Positions 18,411-36,830 of a DNA stretch of 46,701 nucleotides are shown here, in pieces. A program made the position numbers and the translations under genes. Where the stretch lies: IMG/VR virus record IMGVR_UViG_3300045988_115807, one strand, 5' to 3'. Numbering within the stretch: position 1 is the first letter of the stretch; every line of letters begins with the position of its first letter. Below the pieces are notes generated by a model. That model was given only the letters and a program-made list of their open reading frames with translations, did no database searches and was not told the origin of the DNA. The stretch is from a virus. Taxonomy: Duplodnaviria; Heunggongvirae; Uroviricota; Caudoviricetes.

Positions 18411-19376
18411 TTAATTATCAGTAGATTGTTCCTCTAGTAACAACTCAATTCTGCTTAGTATTTCTTTAGATATTTTTCGGCTATCAATTTTTATAGTTAC
18501 AAAATTACCTTTATATCTAGCCGTGATCCCTTCCCCATATTTTTTCTCGTCTTTTGTTTTTTCCTCGTCGCCAACCAGAACAGAGTCAGATAATATTTGT
18601 ATAATCCGTGAAGCTTCTAAATCCTCGCCGTTTTTTTTAATTGCCAGAAGATGATGAGCAGCATTGCTCATGGCAGCCATGTTTTTTTTGTAGACCTTAA
18701 ACAAAGAATCTCCAGCACGAGCTGACAGTTCTCCTGGATGATTGAAGATAGCTAATATATCTTTTGGTAGACCAGCTGTATTAATACAGCGAGTGATAAT
18801 ATTTCTGTCTATATTTTCAGCCTCGGCTAATGCTTTAACGTTACCATCAAAGTCATTTAGCTTGCGTAAGTATCTCTTTCCTCTTTCGTATGCACTAATA
18901 GGCCTATAATCGTTACCAATTTGGGATAACCAATGCATCTGTTCATCGTCGAGATCACCTATTAAGACGCGATAGTCACATCCTGTTAATATCGCTGCTT
19001 TTCTTCTACGTGAGCCGTCAGCGACTTCAACGACTCCAGACACTTTTCTGGCGAAAGCTGGATTTTGTTGTCCAGACGTTAGAAAAGATGGGATTAAATC
19101 GGCTAGAGAGGATTCATTTAATAAATCTTGATCGCGTTCATTACCTAGCCATACCATTGTTGCCATTTCAACTTTATCTGCGGGAATTGTCTCTAACTTA
19201 AAGTTAACATTACGTCCGCATACTGGCAAAGTTATGCTGTTACCGGTTAATGAACTCAGTTGACGTTTTAAATCACCAACCATAGGTGATACGGGCTGAT
19301 GTTCAGGGGCATGATGATTATTACTCATAATGCGATTAATATCTGGAGCATTTTTTAGAAGAGAGCGCTGTTTCAT
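18411..19376 (-). CDS. sopB: partition protein SopB (ParB-like centromere-binding protein)
   Basis: ...ITLPVCGRNVNFKLE...WLGNERDQDLLNE...LIPSFLTSGQQNPAFARKVSGVVEVADGSRRRKAA...GNDYRPISAYERGKRY... closely parallels F-plasmid SopB from memory. Confidence 0.9.
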   Translation of the reverse strand: MKQRSLLKNAPDINRIMSNNHHAPEHQPVSPMVGDLKRQLSSLTGNSITLPVCGRNVNFKLETIPADKVEMATMVWLGNERDQDLLNESSLADLIPSFLTSGQQNPAFARKVSGVVEVADGSRRRKAAILTGCDYRVLIGDLDDEQMHWLSQIGNDYRPISAYERGKRYLRKLNDFDGNVKALAEAENIDRNIITRCINTAGLPKDILAIFNHPGELSARAGDSLFKVYKKNMAAMSNAAHHLLAIKKNGEDLEASRIIQILSDSVLVGDEEKTKDEKKYGEGITARYKGNFVTIKIDSRKISKEILSRIELLLEEQSTDN

Positions 19377-20542
19377 TATTCGTTCTCCCAGCGAGGTTTT
19401 ATTAGATCATCAAAAATTTCTCGGCAAACAGGGTCCCATATAGAAACAGCATTTCTCCATGCATTCAATGTTGAACGTTGGTTTGCTGCTTGTTCAAATA
19501 CTGTTCTCATTTTTATCTGGCCTTTACCTACTTCATCGGTAACGCGTACAACCTGACGTAATACCATTGATCCCCATGTATTTCTTATTTGTTCTTCCAT
19601 CCATCGTGATTGATTCCCTGTAGTGAGACTATATTTAGTCAGAAGTAAGCGAACGGTTGGCTCAAATCCACCTAGGTCAACGCTTTCCAATAGATCGAGA
19701 AGCATTGTGAAAAACTGTAGAACAGAAGCGTAATCAAATAATTCTGCAGGTGTAGCAACAACAATAACGTCAGCGGCACAAACAACGTTAATGGTTCCTG
19801 TACCGAGGTTCGGAGCACTATCTATAACGATAACATCGTAGTTATCCCAAACTGATTCAATAGCTGCGCGCAGCATAAGGTGTGGAGGATGAGGCAATTT
19901 ACCCTGAGCATGATATTGCATGAGATCTGTTTCTATACGATGTAAAGCTAGGCAGCTAGGGATAATGTCTAGCCCAGGCCAACATGTTGGCTTTATAGCA
20001 TATTCAGCGTTATCGCGTTCTCCTAAGTAAAATGGCAGTAAAGTATCCTCGGCATGGATATGTAAATCAGGAACATAACCGTGATACATAGAGGCCGTGC
20101 CTTGAGGATCGTTACCTTCAACCAAAAGAACACGATGACCTTGTAATGCTAACCATTGAGCTTGATGTACCGCAGACGATGTTTTATAAACGCCGCCTTT
20201 GTGTGACATAACGGCAAGCACAACAGGGTTTTTATCTTGTGGTCGTTGGTTTGGGTTGCCAAAAACTGCTCGCATACTGTTGATTTGATCTATGGTATAA
20301 CCAGCACGACGTTCAATTCTTCCTCTCATTTCAAAGTCAGGTGCAGGTAAACGCCCGCTCTTCTCAGCATCTCTAATTGCTTGAGGAGTTACACCAATTA
20401 AATCTGCTACTTCAGTTATACCCCATCGGCGGGTGATACGCCGAGCTTCAGGACTATCATCACCGAATTGAGCGATAGCAATTGCTTGGGTCATTTCTTG
20501 ACCTCTCGTAACACAATCTTGCAATAACTTTTTCAAAGACAT
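19376..20542 (-). CDS. sopA: partition ATPase SopA (ParA, Walker-type)
   Basis: ...AIAIAQFGDDSPEARRITRRW...HKGGVYKTS...LLVEGNDPQGTASMYHGYVPDLHIHAEDTLLPFYLGE...IDSAPNLG... near-colinear with F SopA from memory. Confidence 0.95.
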   Translation of the reverse strand: MSLKKLLQDCVTRGQEMTQAIAIAQFGDDSPEARRITRRWGITEVADLIGVTPQAIRDAEKSGRLPAPDFEMRGRIERRAGYTIDQINSMRAVFGNPNQRPQDKNPVVLAVMSHKGGVYKTSSAVHQAQWLALQGHRVLLVEGNDPQGTASMYHGYVPDLHIHAEDTLLPFYLGERDNAEYAIKPTCWPGLDIIPSCLALHRIETDLMQYHAQGKLPHPPHLMLRAAIESVWDNYDVIVIDSAPNLGTGTINVVCAADVIVVATPAELFDYASVLQFFTMLLDLLESVDLGGFEPTVRLLLTKYSLTTGNQSRWMEEQIRNTWGSMVLRQVVRVTDEVGKGQIKMRTVFEQAANQRSTLNAWRNAVSIWDPVCREIFDDLIKPRWENE

Positions 20543-20650
20543 ACTGTCATCTCCAGCTTGTAACTTTGCTTAATAATTAAATCTTTGCTTATTTCTAGCA
20601 AATTTGCATGAAAAAGGCAAAGCAAAACGAAAAACGCAAAGTGGAATATT
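20543..20650 (-). promoter_or_regulatory. sopAB promoter/operator region with CTTTGC / GCAAAG repeats
   Basis: Sense strand upstream of sopA contains ACTTTGCG, TTTTGCTTTGCC and inverted GCAAAG copies, resembling the SopA-binding CTTTGC repeats of the F sopAB promoter. Confidence 0.45.
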
Positions 20651-20825
20651 TGAGCTAAATCATCTTTTGTTCCCCTCCCGAAATGCATAAAACGAACAAC
20701 GATATAATCATAACTAATTGATATTTATTATCTTTTTTTAAAGAAAGGAAATCATGTAAAACTAGGGAAACATGATAAGAATCATCAATGAGATACGTTT
20801 TCTCTATTAGTTCTCCCAATCTTAC

Positions 20826-21160
20826 CAATACAAGAACATAAACAGAGAACATAAAAATAAAGTAATGACACAAACACAATAAAGAACATAAATAAAGAAT
20901 TAGAACCAATGCTAAATAAAGCAGTACACAAAATGAGAACATTACACCAAATGAGAACATTAATCAAGAACATAACGAAACATAATTCCCCATTATACGC
21001 GCGTATAATGGGGAATTATGTGCTGATTTTCAGAACAAAGTCAAGGAACAAATTTTAACGTTCCGATATTGTGTTTTTATTTATTATCCGTTATTGTGTT
21101 CTGTTAGTTTGTGGCTAAGTTAACGCGTTATTAGTTATCTTATTCTCAAATTGTGTTACG
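20826..21160. repeat. AT-rich tos-like region: AGAACA(T) direct repeats left of, and inverted TGTTCT/TTGTGTT repeats right of, the telomere palindrome
   Basis: CAAGAACATA, GAGAACATA, AAGAACATAAAT, GAGAACATTA (x2), CAAGAACATAACG on the left; CAGAACAAAG, TATTGTGTT (x2), TGTGTTCTG on the right. Confidence 0.6.
20980..21021. other. telRL-like telomere resolution site (42-bp perfect palindrome, telO core)
   Basis: ACATAATTCCCCATTATACGCGCGTATAATGGGGAATTATGT is perfectly self-complementary; centre between 21000 and 21001; central CCATTATACGCGCGTATAATGG matches my recollection of the N15 telO core; 171 bp upstream of telN. Confidence 0.85.
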
Positions 21161-21191
21161 ATAATCCGAGCGGATAATCAGGAGAGGAAAG

Positions 21192-23093
21192 ATGAGCAAA
21201 GTAAAAATCGGTGAATTAATAAACTCACTTGTTAGCGATGTTGAGTCAATAGATAACTCTGACCGTCCTCAAGGGGAGAAAACAAAAAAAATAAAGGCTG
21301 TTGCATTAAAATTTAAAAATGCATTATTTAATGACAAGCGAAAGTTTAGGGGGAAAGGATTAGAAAAAAGAATTACAGCCAACACATTCAATGCCTATAT
21401 GAGCAGGGCCAGAAAACGGTTTGATGATAAACTTCATCATAGCTTTGAAAAAAATATACATCGCCTATCTGAAAAGTATCCTTTATATAATGAGGAGCTA
21501 TTGTCATGGCTTTCTCTACCTGCTGCCGATATTCGCCAGAGAATGTCAGCTTTACAGGCAAAATTAAAATTAATTCTCCCTCTATCAGAAGATTTATCTA
21601 ATATCAGAATTGGCGATAACAAAAGTCATAATAAGTTATTGAAATTATCAAATAAATATAAAGAGTGGCAATTCGCCATTTCTGATTTAACTAGCGATAA
21701 CTGGAAAGATAAGCGCGATTATTTATATAAATTACTACAGCAAGGATCTGCCTTACTTGAGGAGTTGAATCAGCTAAAAGTTAACCATGAGATTCTCTAT
21801 CATCTTCAACTAAGCCCTGCCGAACGTGCATCTATCCAGCAACGATGGGCGGACGTTCTGCACAATAAGAAACGTAACGTGGTGGTCATTGATTACCCTA
21901 AATATATGCAAGCTATTTACGATATTATAAATAGCCCTGCTACATTAAATAATCTAAACACTCGTTCAGGTATGGCTCCTTTGGCATTTGCACTTGCTGC
22001 ATTGTCAGGAAGACGAATGATTGAGATTATGTATCAAGGTACATTTACTGTTTCTGGTAAGTATACCGTTGATTTTTTAGGCCAAGCTAAAAAAAGAACT
22101 TCTGATAATATAACCAGAAAAATATATACATTATGCGAAGCAAAAACATTTGTTTATTTAATAAATGTACTTCGCTCATGCCCAGCAGCATCTGATTTTG
22201 ATGATGTCGTTAAAGGTTATGGAGATAACGACACACGCTCTGAAAACGGACGTATTAATGCCATATTAGCAAAGGCTTTTAACCCGTGGGTTAAATCATT
22301 TTTTAAAGATGACCGCCGTGTTTATAAAGATAGTCGTGCTATTTATGCCCGTATTGCGTATGAAATGTTTTTCCGCGTAGATCCTCGTTGGAAAAACGTA
22401 GATGAAGATGTTTTCTTTATGGAAATTTTAGGCCATGACGATGAAAACACTCAATTACACTATAAGCAATTCAAGCTGGCCAACTTCTCAAAGACATGGA
22501 GGCCAAATACTGGAAACGAAAATACCAGGCTGGAAGCATTGCAGCAGCTTGATGACGAAATGCCTGGATTCGCCAGAGGAGATGCCGGGGTTCGTCTGCA
22601 TAACACAGTTAAGCAGCTGGTAGAGCAGGACCCCTCTATAAAAATCACGAACAGCACTCTAAGAGCGTTCAAATTTAGCCCAACAATGATTAGTCGATAC
22701 CTGGAATTTGCTGCTGATGCTCTGGGGCAATTTGTTGGCGAAAACGGACAATGGCAACTGAAAATAGATACTCCAGAAATCGTTATGCCTGACGAAGAAG
22801 AACTGGAAGCAATACCTGAACTGGCGGATGAATTATCAGAGGATGACGATCTGGATGACGACGAAATTGAGATAGAGGAAGAGGAAGAGGAAGAGGAAGA
22901 TAGCGTAGAAGAACAGCAACCGCCTGCACCTTCTTCGCCTGTATCTAAGCCGGTATTTAAGCCGGTGAGAAATATTGGTGATGGCTCATACGTTGTTGAG
23001 TTTCATTATAATGGCCAGAATTATGCGTGGTCCGGCAGTGCAAACAGCCCCATGTCAGCAATGCAGTTAGCATGGCTGACATATTTCGGTTAA
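21192..23093 (+). CDS. telN: protelomerase TelN (telomere resolvase)
   Basis: 633 aa; MSKVKIGELINSLVSDVESIDNSDRPQGEKTKKIKA...RSGMAPLAFALAALSGRRMIEIM...HDDENTQLHYKQFKLANF... matches N15 TelN from memory; acidic Glu/Asp-rich C-terminal stretch. Confidence 0.95.
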   Translation: MSKVKIGELINSLVSDVESIDNSDRPQGEKTKKIKAVALKFKNALFNDKRKFRGKGLEKRITANTFNAYMSRARKRFDDKLHHSFEKNIHRLSEKYPLYNEELLSWLSLPAADIRQRMSALQAKLKLILPLSEDLSNIRIGDNKSHNKLLKLSNKYKEWQFAISDLTSDNWKDKRDYLYKLLQQGSALLEELNQLKVNHEILYHLQLSPAERASIQQRWADVLHNKKRNVVVIDYPKYMQAIYDIINSPATLNNLNTRSGMAPLAFALAALSGRRMIEIMYQGTFTVSGKYTVDFLGQAKKRTSDNITRKIYTLCEAKTFVYLINVLRSCPAASDFDDVVKGYGDNDTRSENGRINAILAKAFNPWVKSFFKDDRRVYKDSRAIYARIAYEMFFRVDPRWKNVDEDVFFMEILGHDDENTQLHYKQFKLANFSKTWRPNTGNENTRLEALQQLDDEMPGFARGDAGVRLHNTVKQLVEQDPSIKITNSTLRAFKFSPTMISRYLEFAADALGQFVGENGQWQLKIDTPEIVMPDEEELEAIPELADELSEDDDLDDDEIEIEEEEEEEEDSVEEQQPPAPSSPVSKPVFKPVRNIGDGSYVVEFHYNGQNYAWSGSANSPMSAMQLAWLTYFG

Positions 23094-26641: not shown

Positions 26642-29600
26642 AGAAAGCGCCCTGCTCTTCGTAGCTGCATGAGCTATTCCCCGTAATGTATTCACGTAAC
26701 CGCCGCAGCTCATTGCTGGAAAGGTGATCCATGAACTCTGTGAGGTACAGGGATGCAAACGTCATAGCTATGCTGGCTGATGACCATGATGACATAGTGG
26801 CCAACTCCTCACTGGAAAGCGCACTCATCGCCCAGGACTCAGGTACAGCCACTGGCAACACGGCCAAAGCCTCAGAAATTACTGAATGAGGGGCGTTTTG
26901 AACCTGCTCGTTTGTGGATCGCGTTTTATCATCCATATATATATTGAGATCCAAATCGCGATCCATTTCGATGGCTGTCTTCTCGGCTTTACGCGTTTTT
27001 AGGGTTAGGCCATCTTTCTGACGCTGAACAAGAATATCCAGCATAAATGCCGCTGATTCAGGCTCAACAAAACGCAAGGTTGGACGCTTATCGCCGTCTC
27101 TGCCGCGACGTTTACCTGTTTTAAGGCCAAGAGAGTCGCAAATGTTTTTAAACAACGCTTCCGGCACTTTAGGCTTCCCTTTTGGCGTCATAAAACCACC
27201 AATGTGCAGAACGTTATTCAACAGGTCACGGCGTTCGGCTGTCATGAGGTTATCTCGAGCGAATTTGAGACGCTCCTGAGTCGCCTCGCCGGTCATAGTC
27301 TCAGGGTTGATACCGCAGTCGATAAAGTACTGCCGGAGAGTTGCTGATTTAAGCGCATAGAAACCGCGCGCCCCGACTTCAACAGTAGGAGTAGCTTTTA
27401 CCTTGTGATCGATTATTCCAGGGAATTTAGTTTTAAAGACATCATCAGCCTGCTCGCGAGTCATCGCGGTCACTACAAAATATTGCCACTGTCCCGCCTG
27501 ACGGTATGTGTAGGTAAAATTGATGGCTGCTTCTTCCCGGTCGTAACGACGAGCTGTTACCTCATCTAAAAGCATTGTTTCATAGCGGCGAACTTTGTCT
27601 CGAGCACCATCGAAATAGAATTTCAGCGTGCCTTCTTCAACCGGTAGTTTCAGTTCGTTTTCAATATCCCAGCGGACAAGTTTTGCCTGTTCTTCAAGCG
27701 TCAGCGCGCGTTTTTTTAGCAGTTCTTCACGCTCTGATTCTTGTGGTGTTTCTGTATTGAGGTGCAGATCCAGTGTCTGTTCCCACACAATATCCCGCGC
27801 TTCTTTACGCAGATCTTTACCGATATCATTCGCAGCATAATCGGTGGCCAGCGGTGATACCTTATAACCGTCGCTGTGCATGATGCAGATCATGTTGCTG
27901 GCGTAGTCGTTACGCGCAGTCGCTTCAATTGCGGCTGCTTTAATTTTCATCCTGGTAAAGTCGGTATTGGCCACCCCCATTGATATACGGTCGCCATCGA
28001 AAACGACATCCGTAAGTTCACCGTTCATACCTGCGGTAGCAAGCAATGCCTGGGCGAATGCTCGTTCTATTTTTTGCGGGTCAGTTTCACGTTTTGCACG
28101 AGCTTTATCAAAGCCGATAATAAATTCTTTTGCTGTACGGTCGCGGCGTAGCATTTGCACTGCATCACTGGGTACAACTTCACCACAGAACATGCCGAAA
28201 TGACGGTCAAAATGTTTTTGCTCAATCGACACGCCGGATGAAATAGACGGGCTATAAATCAGGCCGTCGTATTTTTTGACCATCTTTTTCGGTTGATTGG
28301 TAAATGCTTCAACTTCTGGCTCTGGTTTGTTTTTCTGGTTTACACACAGAAATTTCTTACCAGGAAAATGCATTCTCAGGGTGGCTGTCACATCTTCTGC
28401 AAAGGTGGAGCTGTCGGTGGCCAACATGATTTTTTCGCCATCCGATACAGCTTTCACCACCTCGGTCATGATGCGATCTTTTTCTGTATAAAAAACCCGG
28501 ATTGGCTCACCTGTTTCGCGGTTGCGAACATCAACAGGTAATTCAATTACGTGGATCTGCAGCCATGCCGGTAAACCTAGTTCTTCACGGCGTTTCATAG
28601 CCAGTTCAGCCAGGTCAACCAGCAGATCGTTCGCATCAGCATCCACCATGATTGGGTGTTGTTCCGTTCTGGCCAGCGCGTCAATTAGCGTATTGAATAC
28701 AGCCACCGGGTTTTCCATAGCCCGACCGGAAAGAACGGCACGTAGCCCTTGTGTGGCCTCGTCAAAGCCAAAATAGTCGTGCTGGCGCATCAACGGTTGC
28801 CAGCAGTTTTTAACAATCGAGTTTATGCAGATGGTCAGTTTACTGGCGTATGGAGCCATTTCCTGATAGCCAGGGTCCTGATAGTGCAGGATATCGGTTT
28901 TTACACCTTTTCCTTCTGTCATCATTTCCCACAGGCCACCAATAAGGGAAACACGGTGAGCAACAGAGATACCACGTTCTGAGCTATGCATTAAAGGTCG
29001 TAACAATCCAGTAGATTTGCCGGAACCCATACCAGCACGAACGATGACTATCCCCTGTAGTGATTGCACATACTTCAGGACGTCATCGGTCATTACCGAA
29101 GTTTCAAAACGCTTATAGGTGATATGTTGAGGACGTTTATTGGGATCAGTTATGCGTTCGCTGAATGAGCGCGGAGCCTGGGCAATACGGCACTTTTTAT
29201 TCAGGCGACGGGCAATGTGGTCTTTTACCGTAGCGCGATAGATATTTTCCAGCCCCATTTCACGCAGAACGATGCAGAACATGTTAAATAAGTCTGACGG
29301 ACTGTTAGGAACCGGACAGGTTAGCATGCCAATATCCACCGCTCTCAGCAGCTCTTTGGCAAAAGTACGACGGTTATCCCGCTTAATTGTCTTCAGGCGG
29401 TTGAGCGTCAGAGATAGCAAATCAGTGCCGGTTTTCAGGCGGTTTGCAGTTGCAAACAGTTGACGTGCTGTTTCACGAAGTCCACGCAGTTTGTGCAGGT
29501 CGTTGAAGTCACTGCACTCCATTTGCGGATCGTCTTCAAAAGTTGGATAGACGCAGCGGACATCGTTGAATTTCGATAAGATTTCATAGCCAGTCCGCAG

Positions 29601-32944: not shown

Positions 32945-33544
32945 GTGACTAATCAGATTATTTACGACAGGAAACGGTCTGATGTAATGATTGACCTTGA
33001 AACAATGGGTACTAACACATGTGCTCCAATTGTTTCTATCGGGGCAGTGTTTTTTTCTCCAGAAAGTGAGGAATTAGGTCCTACTTTTTATGTACCAGTG
33101 AATCTCAGAAGCTCGATGTTGAATGGTGGTGTCGCCGATGGTGATACCATTTTATGGTGGTTGAAACAGAGCAAGGAAGCCAGAGCCGCAATTTGTACTA
33201 ATGATGCCCTTGATATTAAGGATGCACTTTTTGAATTATCACACTTTATTACTTGCCATGCATGTAATTTAAAAAAATTGAAAGTATGGGGAAATGGAGC
33301 AACGTTCGATAATGTAATTTTACGCGGTGCTTATGAGCGCGTTGGCTTAGCCTGTCCGTGGGAATATTTTAATGATCAGGATGTTCGAACAATCGTTAAC
33401 CTTGGTCAGTTTATTGGTTTTAATCCTAAAAAAGATATGCCATTTGATGGCGAACGACACAATGCCCTGGCTGATGCTATTCATCAGGCTAAATATGTAT
33501 CAGCAATTTTCTCCCGTCTTGTAAAAGGGCAAGGAGAATCGTAA
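32945..33544 (+). CDS. 3'-5' exonuclease, DEDDh (DnaQ/RNase T-like) family
   Basis: GTG start with GAGGAG RBS; motifs MIDLETMG (Exo I), WGNGATFD (Exo II), HNALADA (Exo III). Confidence 0.8.
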   Translation: MTNQIIYDRKRSDVMIDLETMGTNTCAPIVSIGAVFFSPESEELGPTFYVPVNLRSSMLNGGVADGDTILWWLKQSKEARAAICTNDALDIKDALFELSHFITCHACNLKKLKVWGNGATFDNVILRGAYERVGLACPWEYFNDQDVRTIVNLGQFIGFNPKKDMPFDGERHNALADAIHQAKYVSAIFSRLVKGQGES

Positions 33545-36519: not shown

Positions 36520-36830
36520 CAGTTCATCTCCTTCAGGCGAGTTCTGGCGATTTCGATAGCCTTCACCGGTGTTTTCTGTGTCTTTTTTACAAATGCATGC
36601 AATAGATAAATTTCGTTACCAGTCGCGTAGGCGTACAGCGTTCTTGCGATGTTTTTATCCCCTACTCGTAGTTCAAAAAGCCCTCCACCTATTACACGGC
36701 TATGGGGCATCTTCAGTTTGTTGCCTTCCTTCTCCAGTCGCTCAATTAATCTGGTCATGCGACCTCGCAAATCATCTGGTAGTTCAAGCAGTTCATCCAG
36801 TGCTGCAGGGTGGGTTATCACGTTAAACAT
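36519..36830 (-). CDS. RelE/ParE-superfamily toxin, HigB/Gp49-like
   Basis: 103 aa; toxin-first operon order with a downstream HTH antitoxin, typical of HigBA / Gp49-like modules. Confidence 0.7.
   Translation of the reverse strand: MFNVITHPAALDELLELPDDLRGRMTRLIERLEKEGNKLKMPHSRVIGGGLFELRVGDKNIARTLYAYATGNEIYLLHAFVKKTQKTPVKAIEIARTRLKEMN

Follow-up and report, generated by a model that had tools for sequence, protein, structure and literature searches.

The protelomerase TelN and its target, tos, have become common tools for linearising plasmids and chromosomes and for producing closed-ended DNA, and they provide the simplest model of telomere capping. The natural target of TelN measures approximately 310 bp, with the 56-bp telRL, composed of telO plus repeats L3 and R3, as its core; around telRL lie L1, L2, R1 and R2, which are degenerate copies of L3/R3, and what the repeats beyond this 56-bp core do has so far been a matter of speculation (PMC12624138). 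TelN is retained on hairpin ends and shields them from SbcCD, and this protection requires specific binding (PMC12624138), while monomers of TelK have been reported to diffuse on DNA with a preference for the target sequence, its dimers being able to condense DNA (PMC3575837). GenBank records of N15 annotate the 56-bp repeat and leave the outer repeats without annotation, and a literature search that combined "telomerase occupancy site" with N15 retrieved no papers.

The locus between sopA and telN

The stretch of DNA analysed here (the window; 46,701 nucleotides, IMG/VR record IMGVR_UViG_3300045988_115807) is a complete, 46.7-kb N15-like (Ravinvirus) linear-plasmid telomere phage in the phage-map arrangement, and Escherichia phage YDC107_1 is 94-98% identical to it in piecewise alignment. 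The left neighbour of the repeat array is the partition ATPase gene sopA/parA (19376-20542, minus strand), identified through Pfam and annotated as sopA in relatives, which is followed by sopB (18411-19376, minus strand), also a neighbour gene of the tos region. On the other side, telN (21192-23093, plus strand) encodes a protelomerase in which Pfam recognises the TelK N, muzzle, catalytic and stirrup domains; the protein matches the TelK crystal structure (PDB 2v6e) with E=1.8e-295, and is 77% identical to N15 TelN and 79% identical to TelK. The sopA-telN intergenic region, of 649 bp, contains the telomere palindrome, and the placement is that of a tos-type site, with the sopBA partition operon on one side and the protelomerase gene directly downstream. 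An Rfam scan gave sub-threshold noise only, with no family match.

As judged by alignment, positions 20826-21160 are homologous to N15 tos in position as well as in sequence, and their architecture is not different in kind, because the repeat copies occupy positions shared with N15 and the N15 tos interval maps onto the window: the PCR primers employed for N15 tos (PMC2847241) correspond to approximately 20802-21170. The original prediction had proposed a protelomerase occupancy site, an identification that the N15 homologue between sopA and telN bears out. It had also proposed that the architecture differs from that of N15, and this part is mostly unsupported, since the same motif family is found on both flanks at homologous offsets; what can be retained of it is quantitative, namely eight sopA-side copies with at most two mismatches (six of them exact AGAACAT) as opposed to three in N15, and a decayed distal half of L3. 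The AGAACA array is thus a relative's version of the already described N15 tos, and no new kind of element.

The two loci have in common their position between sopA and telN, the telO core, the flank motif, a number of offsets, the converging orientation of the repeats, and an enzyme of 77% identity. They differ in the palindrome, which is perfect over 42 bp in the window and over 22 bp, within a 56-bp imperfect palindrome, in N15; apart from this, identity over the sopA-side flank reaches only about 50%. In N15, the left flank carries the units AAACACAAT, AGAACATCA, AGAACACCA, AGAACACAA and, twice, GGAACATAT, followed by L3, and the right flank carries AGAACATAA and AGAACAATA, followed by inverted GGAACACAA, AGAACATAA and TGTTCTTTGATTGTGTT, so that both sides display an AGAACA(Y)/GGAACAT motif family (N15 offsets -156, -121/-108, -34, +69 and +93). 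Offsets of approximately -156/-168, -108/-118, -34, +68/69, +93 and +150 are common to N15, MStein-2023a, the window and its sister clade; TelN of MStein-2023a and N15 is 77-78% identical to that of the window. Two long outer inverted pairs in N15 consist of these same motif units, and probably correspond to L1/R1 and L2/R2 as published.

The palindrome and its arm repeats

The perfect 42-bp telomere-resolution palindrome (20980-21021, with its centre between 21000 and 21001) contains the telO core CCATTATACGCGCGTATAATGG at 20990-21011, which the window has in common with N15 and phiKO2, and whose columns hardly vary when aligned with N15. On the telN side, an intact R3-type arm repeat, ATTATGTGCTGAT (21015-21027, plus strand), matches the pattern ATTrTGTGCTGAT exactly, and no second exact copy exists in the window. 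Reverse-complemented, 21016-21024 give the arm motif AGCACATAA; when the intact right arm is read towards the centre (AATCAGCACATAATTCCCC), this 9-mer occupies bases 24-16 from the centre, and bases 16-24 would be the region of the distal contacts of TelN.

The sopA side is built differently. As had been noticed from the sequence originally, the right-hand TGTGCTGAT (21019-21027) has no mirror copy on the left, where 20974-20982 read AACGAAACA and not ATCAGCACA. A symmetric 56-bp telRL is therefore absent from the window: the mirror L3 keeps only its inner half, ACATAAT (bases 15-21), which is exactly the part within the 42-bp perfect palindrome, and its decayed distal half (20974-20979, plus strand) reads AACGAA, as opposed to ATCAGC in N15 and in the sister clade. 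Positions 22-26, counted outward from the centre, are AAGCA where the mirror of R3 would be CGACT, and the plus strand thus carries ACGAA in place of TCAGC at 20975-20979 (left-arm context AAGAACATAACGAAACATAATTCC).

The sopA-side flank was found in 25 plasmid records and 16 E. coli genome records, of which eight were aligned together with N15. All six close plasmid relatives in the alignment have the decayed left arm (with ACGGA in one of the six), and among IMG/VR contigs two (L022 and L023) have the asymmetric RL form, two (L021 and L024) terminate in a palindrome of RR type whose two sides both carry the decayed arm, and six have the canonical arm on both sides. Since the same left arm recurs in six of six close relatives and in IMG/VR contigs, sequencing error can be dismissed as the cause of the asymmetry between L3 and R3; as for the distal half of L3, its loss is lineage-specific and extends to every close relative examined. 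Along with this loss, the lineage is characterised by more, and better, sopA-side copies. A widespread E. coli lineage tolerates the loss of half of one arm repeat, and the decayed L3 and the enlarged sopA-side array represent modest natural variants with which the outer tos repeats could be tested.

The sister clade, formed by the E. coli Ravinvirus plasmid-prophages PhiR46_1, pEC12401-3 and pS142-3, has a TelN that is 98.7% identical to that of the window and, like the window, an AGAACAY array of similar size on the sopA side, but unlike the window it has kept a symmetric L3 (ATCAGCACATAAT; left context AAGAACATATCAGCACATAATTyCC). Its sopA-side array is only 68-70% identical to that of the window, as compared to 78-85% for the neighbouring sopA-side segments and 95-98% for those of the telN-side flank, and a mosaic boundary can therefore be placed at the palindrome.

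The substrates that lysogenic replication presents to TelN for resolution are LL and RR junctions. Given that the left arm has decayed, it follows that the sopA-side junction lacks a canonical distal arm motif, and yet only about 1% of TelN residues differ between the window and the symmetric sister clade. It is conceivable, though on balance unlikely, that TelN is positioned on the RR junction by the 42-bp core and by a AGAACATAA copy one helical turn out, with the rest of the array behind it. The asymmetry itself is best seen as that of two different sub-telomeres joined in the phage form. In relatives of the window, long-read assemblies run round the hairpin, generating inverted duplications centred on the palindrome (telN side in CP025712.1, sopA side in pG749_3), and contig L021 stops 31 nt beyond the palindrome centre. 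These patterns, all from relatives, hint indirectly that the palindrome may be processed in vivo into two covalently closed hairpin ends.

The flanking repeats and their conservation

At least six AGAACA(T) copies had originally been noticed left of the palindrome, and the observation holds; their count also exceeds what is expected of the local A-rich DNA. Exact AGAACAT occurs six times, always on the plus strand (at 20833, 20846, 20883, 20936, 20954 and 20967), within 141 bp (20833-20973) that end 7 bp from the palindrome. When the local A-rich flank alone (20800-20979, 53% A) was shuffled 2000 times with its dinucleotides preserved, six copies of any 6-mer were obtained in one shuffle, and six copies of any 7-mer in none. 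A weight matrix derived from the six copies assigns 16-17 bits to these sites, and nowhere else in the 46.7 kb does it exceed 12.2 bits.

The outermost repeat, AGAACATAA at 20833-20841 (offset -168), aligns with GAAACACAA of the N15 outer inverted-repeat arm and, on that alignment, is probably L1; the second member of this outer pair, AGAACATAA at 20846-20854 (offset -155), aligns with N15 AGAACATCA. They are followed by the weaker copies ATGACACAA (20865-20873; offset -136, two mismatches) and AACACAAT (20874-20881), by AGAACATAA at 20883-20891 (offset -118), and by the weaker AGTACACAA at 20923-20931 (offset -78). Closer to the palindrome are two copies of AGAACATTA, at 20936-20944 (offset -65; N15 has GGAACATAT at about -63) and 20954-20962 (offset -47), and finally the proximal AGAACATAA at 20967-20975 (offset -34), which sits exactly 10 bp outside the canonical position of the L3 9-mer (-24); the sister clade has copies at both -34 and -24. 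All of these copies lie on the plus strand. The extended consensus of the array is RAGAACATWA, and the spacing between copies (13, 37, 40, 13, 18, 13 and 10 bp) is irregular and devoid of helical phasing.

On the telN side, TGTTCT and TTGTGTT had been predicted as inverse copies of the array motif, and they are indeed present, the former once (21097-21102) and the latter three times (21069, 21094 and 21151); three right-flank copies of ATTGTGTT were matched by 2 of 2000 shuffles. The two strings do not, however, represent two motifs. They overlap at 21094-21102 in TTGTGTTCT, the reverse complement of AGAACACAA, and since both are overlapping parts of one 9-mer they are one and the same motif. 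The copy at 21094-21102 (minus strand) is the best on this side, and occurs at +93 in the window, the sister clade, N15 and MStein. A further inward copy, with reverse complement AAAACACAA, is located at 21069-21077 (minus strand, offset +68) and is conserved at +69 in N15 and MStein. Just right of R3 lie two weak, outward-pointing copies, AGAACAAAG (21032) and GGAACAAAT (21045), which cover 21032-21053 on the plus strand, share their orientation with the left array, and are conserved in position with AGAACATAA and AGAACAATA of N15 (N15 offset +31).

The last telN-side feature (21151-21162, minus strand) is a weak inward copy, with reverse complement GTAACACAA (21151-21159), which overlaps an extended -10-like element, TGTTACGAT (TGnTACGAT), at 21154-21162; ATTGTGTTACGATA is invariant across all telN-side sequences, including that of N15. 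This element is a candidate telN promoter, a suggestion that stems from its sequence. A consensus promoter scan of the region called no telN promoter and yielded only a minus-strand TTGACT-18-CATAAT that reads into the palindrome and lies within chance expectation, and a literature search on the telN promoter or autoregulation, and on binding of TelN at outer repeats, found nothing relevant among open papers.

As the left copies are on the plus strand and those at 21069, 21094 and 21151 on the minus strand, both sets converge on the palindrome. They also resemble its arms: AGAACATAA differs from AGCACATAA of R3 by a single base, C to A, so that eight of nine positions are alike. A scan with AGCACAYAA that allowed up to two mismatches recovered, on the sopA side, copies at 20833, 20846, 20865, 20883, 20923, 20936, 20954 and 20967, and on the telN side R3, 21069 and 21094, all of them inward, plus a weaker copy at 21151; degenerate arm-motif copies of the L1/L2 and R1/R2 type that converge on telRL are thus present outside the core, with eight inward on the left and three on the right beyond R3. 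With 28 bp per arm removed from the flanks, the arm 9-mer AGCACATAA is found with up to two mismatches seven times inward and once outward, as compared to a mean of 2.0 inward matches in shuffled sequence, where seven were attained in 0 of 1000 shuffles. These results suggest, with reasonable though incomplete confidence, that each AGAACAY(A/T)A unit represents the L3/R3 arm motif AGCACAYAA in diverged form. Position 3 in the flank copies is always A and never C (AGAACA as opposed to AGCACA), and this A is itself conserved, while position 7 alternates freely between T and C; the constancy of position 3 argues that the flank copies follow a separate consensus, AGAACAY, and do not result from random decay of L3.

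The repeats could also stem from local duplication or slippage of arm-proximal sequence beside the recombinogenic palindrome, in which case they would be functionless debris that persists since the relatives are young. The array is in fact the most variable intergenic part: positions 20826-20979 form the fastest-evolving intergenic segment, with 86-88% identity in most close relatives as opposed to 93-99% in neighbouring segments. The number of copies varies by lineage (eight here and three in N15 at the same threshold), their spacing is irregular, and in Yersinia phage P840 a flanking inverted repeat of the PY54 type has been shown to be dispensable for resolution in vivo (PMC10612081). Within this variable segment, nevertheless, conservation of the AGAACA columns amounts to 98% among close relatives and 86% for the sister clade, while the spacers reach 86.5% and 61%, respectively (Fisher p = 6e-8 and 2e-4; the rows being related, these p values are indicative only). 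Moreover, several offsets have been kept as far as N15 and MStein, and the orientation bias on the left is complete, at eight to zero. Debris of this nature is thus improbable as an explanation, and the contrast between hexamers and spacers indicates that selection acts on the outer repeats in natural phages.

Selection on a coding sequence has next to nothing to recommend it. Two minus-strand open reading frames, 20655-20960 (101 aa) and 20785-20973 (62 aa), appear in the mechanical list of such frames, but they have no Pfam match, single-base indels fall within them in eight of eight aligned relatives, and no gene is annotated there in any relative.

The location of the array, 290-430 bp upstream of sopA and on its side of the palindrome, evokes the question of whether the repeats could be partition sites, acting either as a SopA operator or as a SopB centromere-like site of sopAB. 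SopA of F binds CTTTGC repeats, and the F-type SopB sites are palindromes and not direct repeats, which counts against such a role. Four CTTTGC hexamers, two per strand, do occur in the window, but they form a separate cluster at 20564-20641, directly upstream of sopA; the array itself contains no CTTTGC. This cluster, which we take to match the F-type SopA operator, is the probable candidate for the SopA operator of the sopAB promoter, and the AGAACA array was rejected in that capacity. An F-type sopC pattern, GGGACCNNGGTCCC, has no match within the window, so that no centromere sites were located through it. The same AGAACA motif recurs in inverted form on the telN side, and N15 centromere sites have been reported elsewhere, for example inside repA (PMC2847241), all of which leaves a partition function for the array very improbable.

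Iterons of a replication origin were likewise considered and rejected, in view of the 9-bp core and the irregular spacing of 10-40 bp, as compared to regular repeats of 17-22 bp, and of the adjoining genes, which are sopA and telN and not rep. The "origin of replication binding" gene of YDC107_1 aligns with the window only from about 26820 onward.

Candidate readers of the repeats

If the outer repeats are recognised by a protein, the enzyme that acts on the palindrome between them is the first candidate, and other protelomerase phages are informative in this respect. Like the window, phiKO2 and PY54 have a telRL palindrome upstream of the protelomerase gene and several inward copies of their own distal arm motif; their flank consensus is different (AT[A/C]ACAYAA in phiKO2, GGGTTAC/GTAACC in PY54), and in phiKO2, unlike in the window, copies are more numerous on the tel-gene side. 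Each phage's own arms supplied a 9-mer, from bases 24-16, that was searched for across all flanks. AGCACAYAA gave 4-12 inward matches, and few outward ones, in the window, N15, MStein and phiKO2, while the PY54 arm motif (GTAACCTAT/GTCACCTAT) gave six inward matches in PY54 flanks and 0-2 elsewhere. Shuffles of the phage's own flanks reached the observed number in 0 of 1000 cases for the window and for PY54, and in 13, 31 and 50 of 1000 for phiKO2, N15 and MStein, respectively. In VP882 and phiHAP-1 the enrichment of the arm motif was not significant in the register used, and other repeats are visible there. The fact that flanks imitate the cognate arm is the best computational argument for a protelomerase, and not a host factor, as the reader of the repeats.

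The copies may therefore be regarded, probably though by no means certainly, as weak landing sites for TelN that would serve the efficiency of telomere capping and resolution and possibly the autoregulation of telN; we infer both the binding and its three functional consequences from the sequence. After resolution, each array would become the sub-terminal DNA of one hairpin, that of the sopA side belonging to telR and that of the telN side to telL. The individual copies could act as weak, non-cleavable sites for TelN monomers, which would be contacted probably via the stirrup or CTD1 domain. Arrays of inward half-sites would capture monomers and thereby hold a local pool of TelN on the telomere, which could favour the efficient assembly of TelN dimers on replicated junctions and, secondly, build a larger nucleoprotein cap that shields the hairpin from SbcCD. 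Thirdly, TelN bound at 21151-21159, where the copy overlaps the -10-like element, could exert negative feedback on telN.

A number of observations speak against TelN. Its C-terminal domains, including the one that has been proposed to read these repeats, are dispensable for the protection of hairpins (PMC12624138); the dispensability of the P840 repeat for resolution, the irregular spacing of the copies and the negative enrichment result for VP882 and phiHAP-1 point in the same direction, and a flank consensus distinct from that of the arms could also be accounted for by another reader protein or domain. AGAACA could thus be bound by a protein other than TelN, be it a host reader of direct repeats (of the response-regulator or nucleoid-associated type) or another phage protein, whose role would be to organise or tether the telomere on the sopA side, or to adjust the expression of sopAB, upstream of which the array lies. 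[quoted passage not shown] On the other hand, ACAYAA is common to the copies and to the arm motif, with eight of nine positions alike, and the repeats of both sides point inward, while the imitation of a different arm motif by the flanks of PY54 would not be explained by a common host factor. There is, in addition, no other strong site genome-wide and no candidate protein, and any likeness to host operator motifs is tentative. A reader other than TelN hence appears rather unlikely.

Were TelN indeed positioned on the RR junction by the 42-bp core, the AGAACATAA copy and the array, which is the less likely course, the sub-telomeric repeats would be functional, partly redundant landing sites for the enzyme, and a single replicon would have two telomeres that differ in both build and binding; the lineage would then amount to a natural experiment on the role of repeats of the N15 L1/L2 type in resolution and end capping. 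Among other recombinase and transposase systems, weaker or non-catalytic sites beside a catalytic core, proposed to build up a larger nucleoprotein complex, are also found in the arm sites of lambda Int and in the L1-L3/R1-R3 ends of Mu, and the Rap1 arrays of yeast telomeres have been compared to this type of locus (PMC12624138). These three systems are analogies only, without homology; nothing in the window points to a separate arm-binding domain, to DNA-bending cofactors or to a need for the repeats in catalysis.

A minor feature of the locus is that its AT and GC skews change sign at the palindrome, which can be traced to the opposed orientation of the two arrays.

Mosaicism around the telomere palindrome

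In the intergenic region between sopA and telN (20543-21191), alignment of the sister clade of Escherichia coli Ravinvirus plasmid-prophages (PhiR46_1, pEC12401-3 and pS142-3) with the window reveals 68-85% identity on the sopA side and 95-98% on the telN side; the TelN proteins are 98.7% identical. A mosaic boundary is located at the perfect telomere-resolution palindrome (20980-21021), and the difference between the two sides, together with the near identity of TelN, suggests that whole genome arms have been exchanged at or near telRL.

Probable hairpin read-through in the records of relatives

Records of two relatives contain inverted duplications at telomere ends. CP025712.1 (phage YDC107_1), deposited in GenBank as a ‘complete genome’, is an inverted duplication about the telN-side hairpin, in which telN and repA are each present in two opposed copies, one of them frameshifted, and from which both sopAB and the left-arm end are absent; its length of 46701 is coincidentally equal to that of the window, the two being only 94-98% identical. 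In pG749_3, a 62.6-kb plasmid record labelled circular, a similar inverted duplication is seen for the sopA-side end (757-1057). Both duplications have the appearance of hairpin telomeres read through in long-read sequencing. The E. coli YDC107 chromosome record (NZ_CP025707.1, 15854-16310) contains the sopA-side flank at 80% identity to the window; this copy may represent either the missing sopA-side arm of the strain's telomere phage, placed in the chromosome during assembly, or another, related element.

Candidate elements on the sopA side

Immediately upstream of sopA, four CTTTGC hexamers (at 20564 and 20583 on the plus strand, and at 20617 and 20636 on the minus strand) form a cluster at 20564-20641, and the inverted-repeat search identified a 24-nt imperfect palindrome that contains these hexamers. 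N15 carries a conserved counterpart in the form of GCAAAG repeats, and the cluster looks like an F-type SopA operator. Between this putative operator and the AGAACA array lies the block AAAGAAAGGAAATCATGTAAAACTAGGGAAACATGATAAGAATCATCAATGAGATACGTTTTCTCTAT (20740-20825), whose identity in alignments (93-99% in close relatives, about 79% in the sister clade) is far above the conservation of the array. Part of this block can be aligned with GAACATGCTGATTTTCA of N15, a sequence similar to an R3 repeat (one of the distal arm repeats of N15 telRL) in outward orientation.

Elements on the telN side and dispersed palindromes

The dyad ATCCGAGCGGAT (21164-21175), with a GATAATC repeat on either side, is situated downstream of the putative telN -10 and upstream of the ribosome-binding site; it is absent from N15 and may serve as an operator or form a hairpin in the 5' UTR. 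Two relatives, pAH01-1 and pEC12401-3, have ATCAGAGCTGAT at this position; its two changes, C to A and G to T, retain dyad symmetry and generate ATCAG/CTGAT, the distal L3/R3 motif. A promoter-like TTGACT-18-CATAAT on the minus strand (21015-21044; 10/12 matches), whose -10 falls within the right arm, reads leftward into the palindrome; the total count of such matches in the region, in a consensus promoter scan, is within chance expectation.

Imperfect palindromes centred on ATGCAT or AATGCATT are scattered through the right arm (21311-21332, 28359-28382, 33245-33276 and 36585-36610, by inverted-repeat search), one of them within telN, and AAATGCAT (20682-20689) was grouped with them. These palindromes may be the dispersed centromere (SopB) sites of the N15 type; one of the N15 centromere sites is reported inside repA (PMC2847241).
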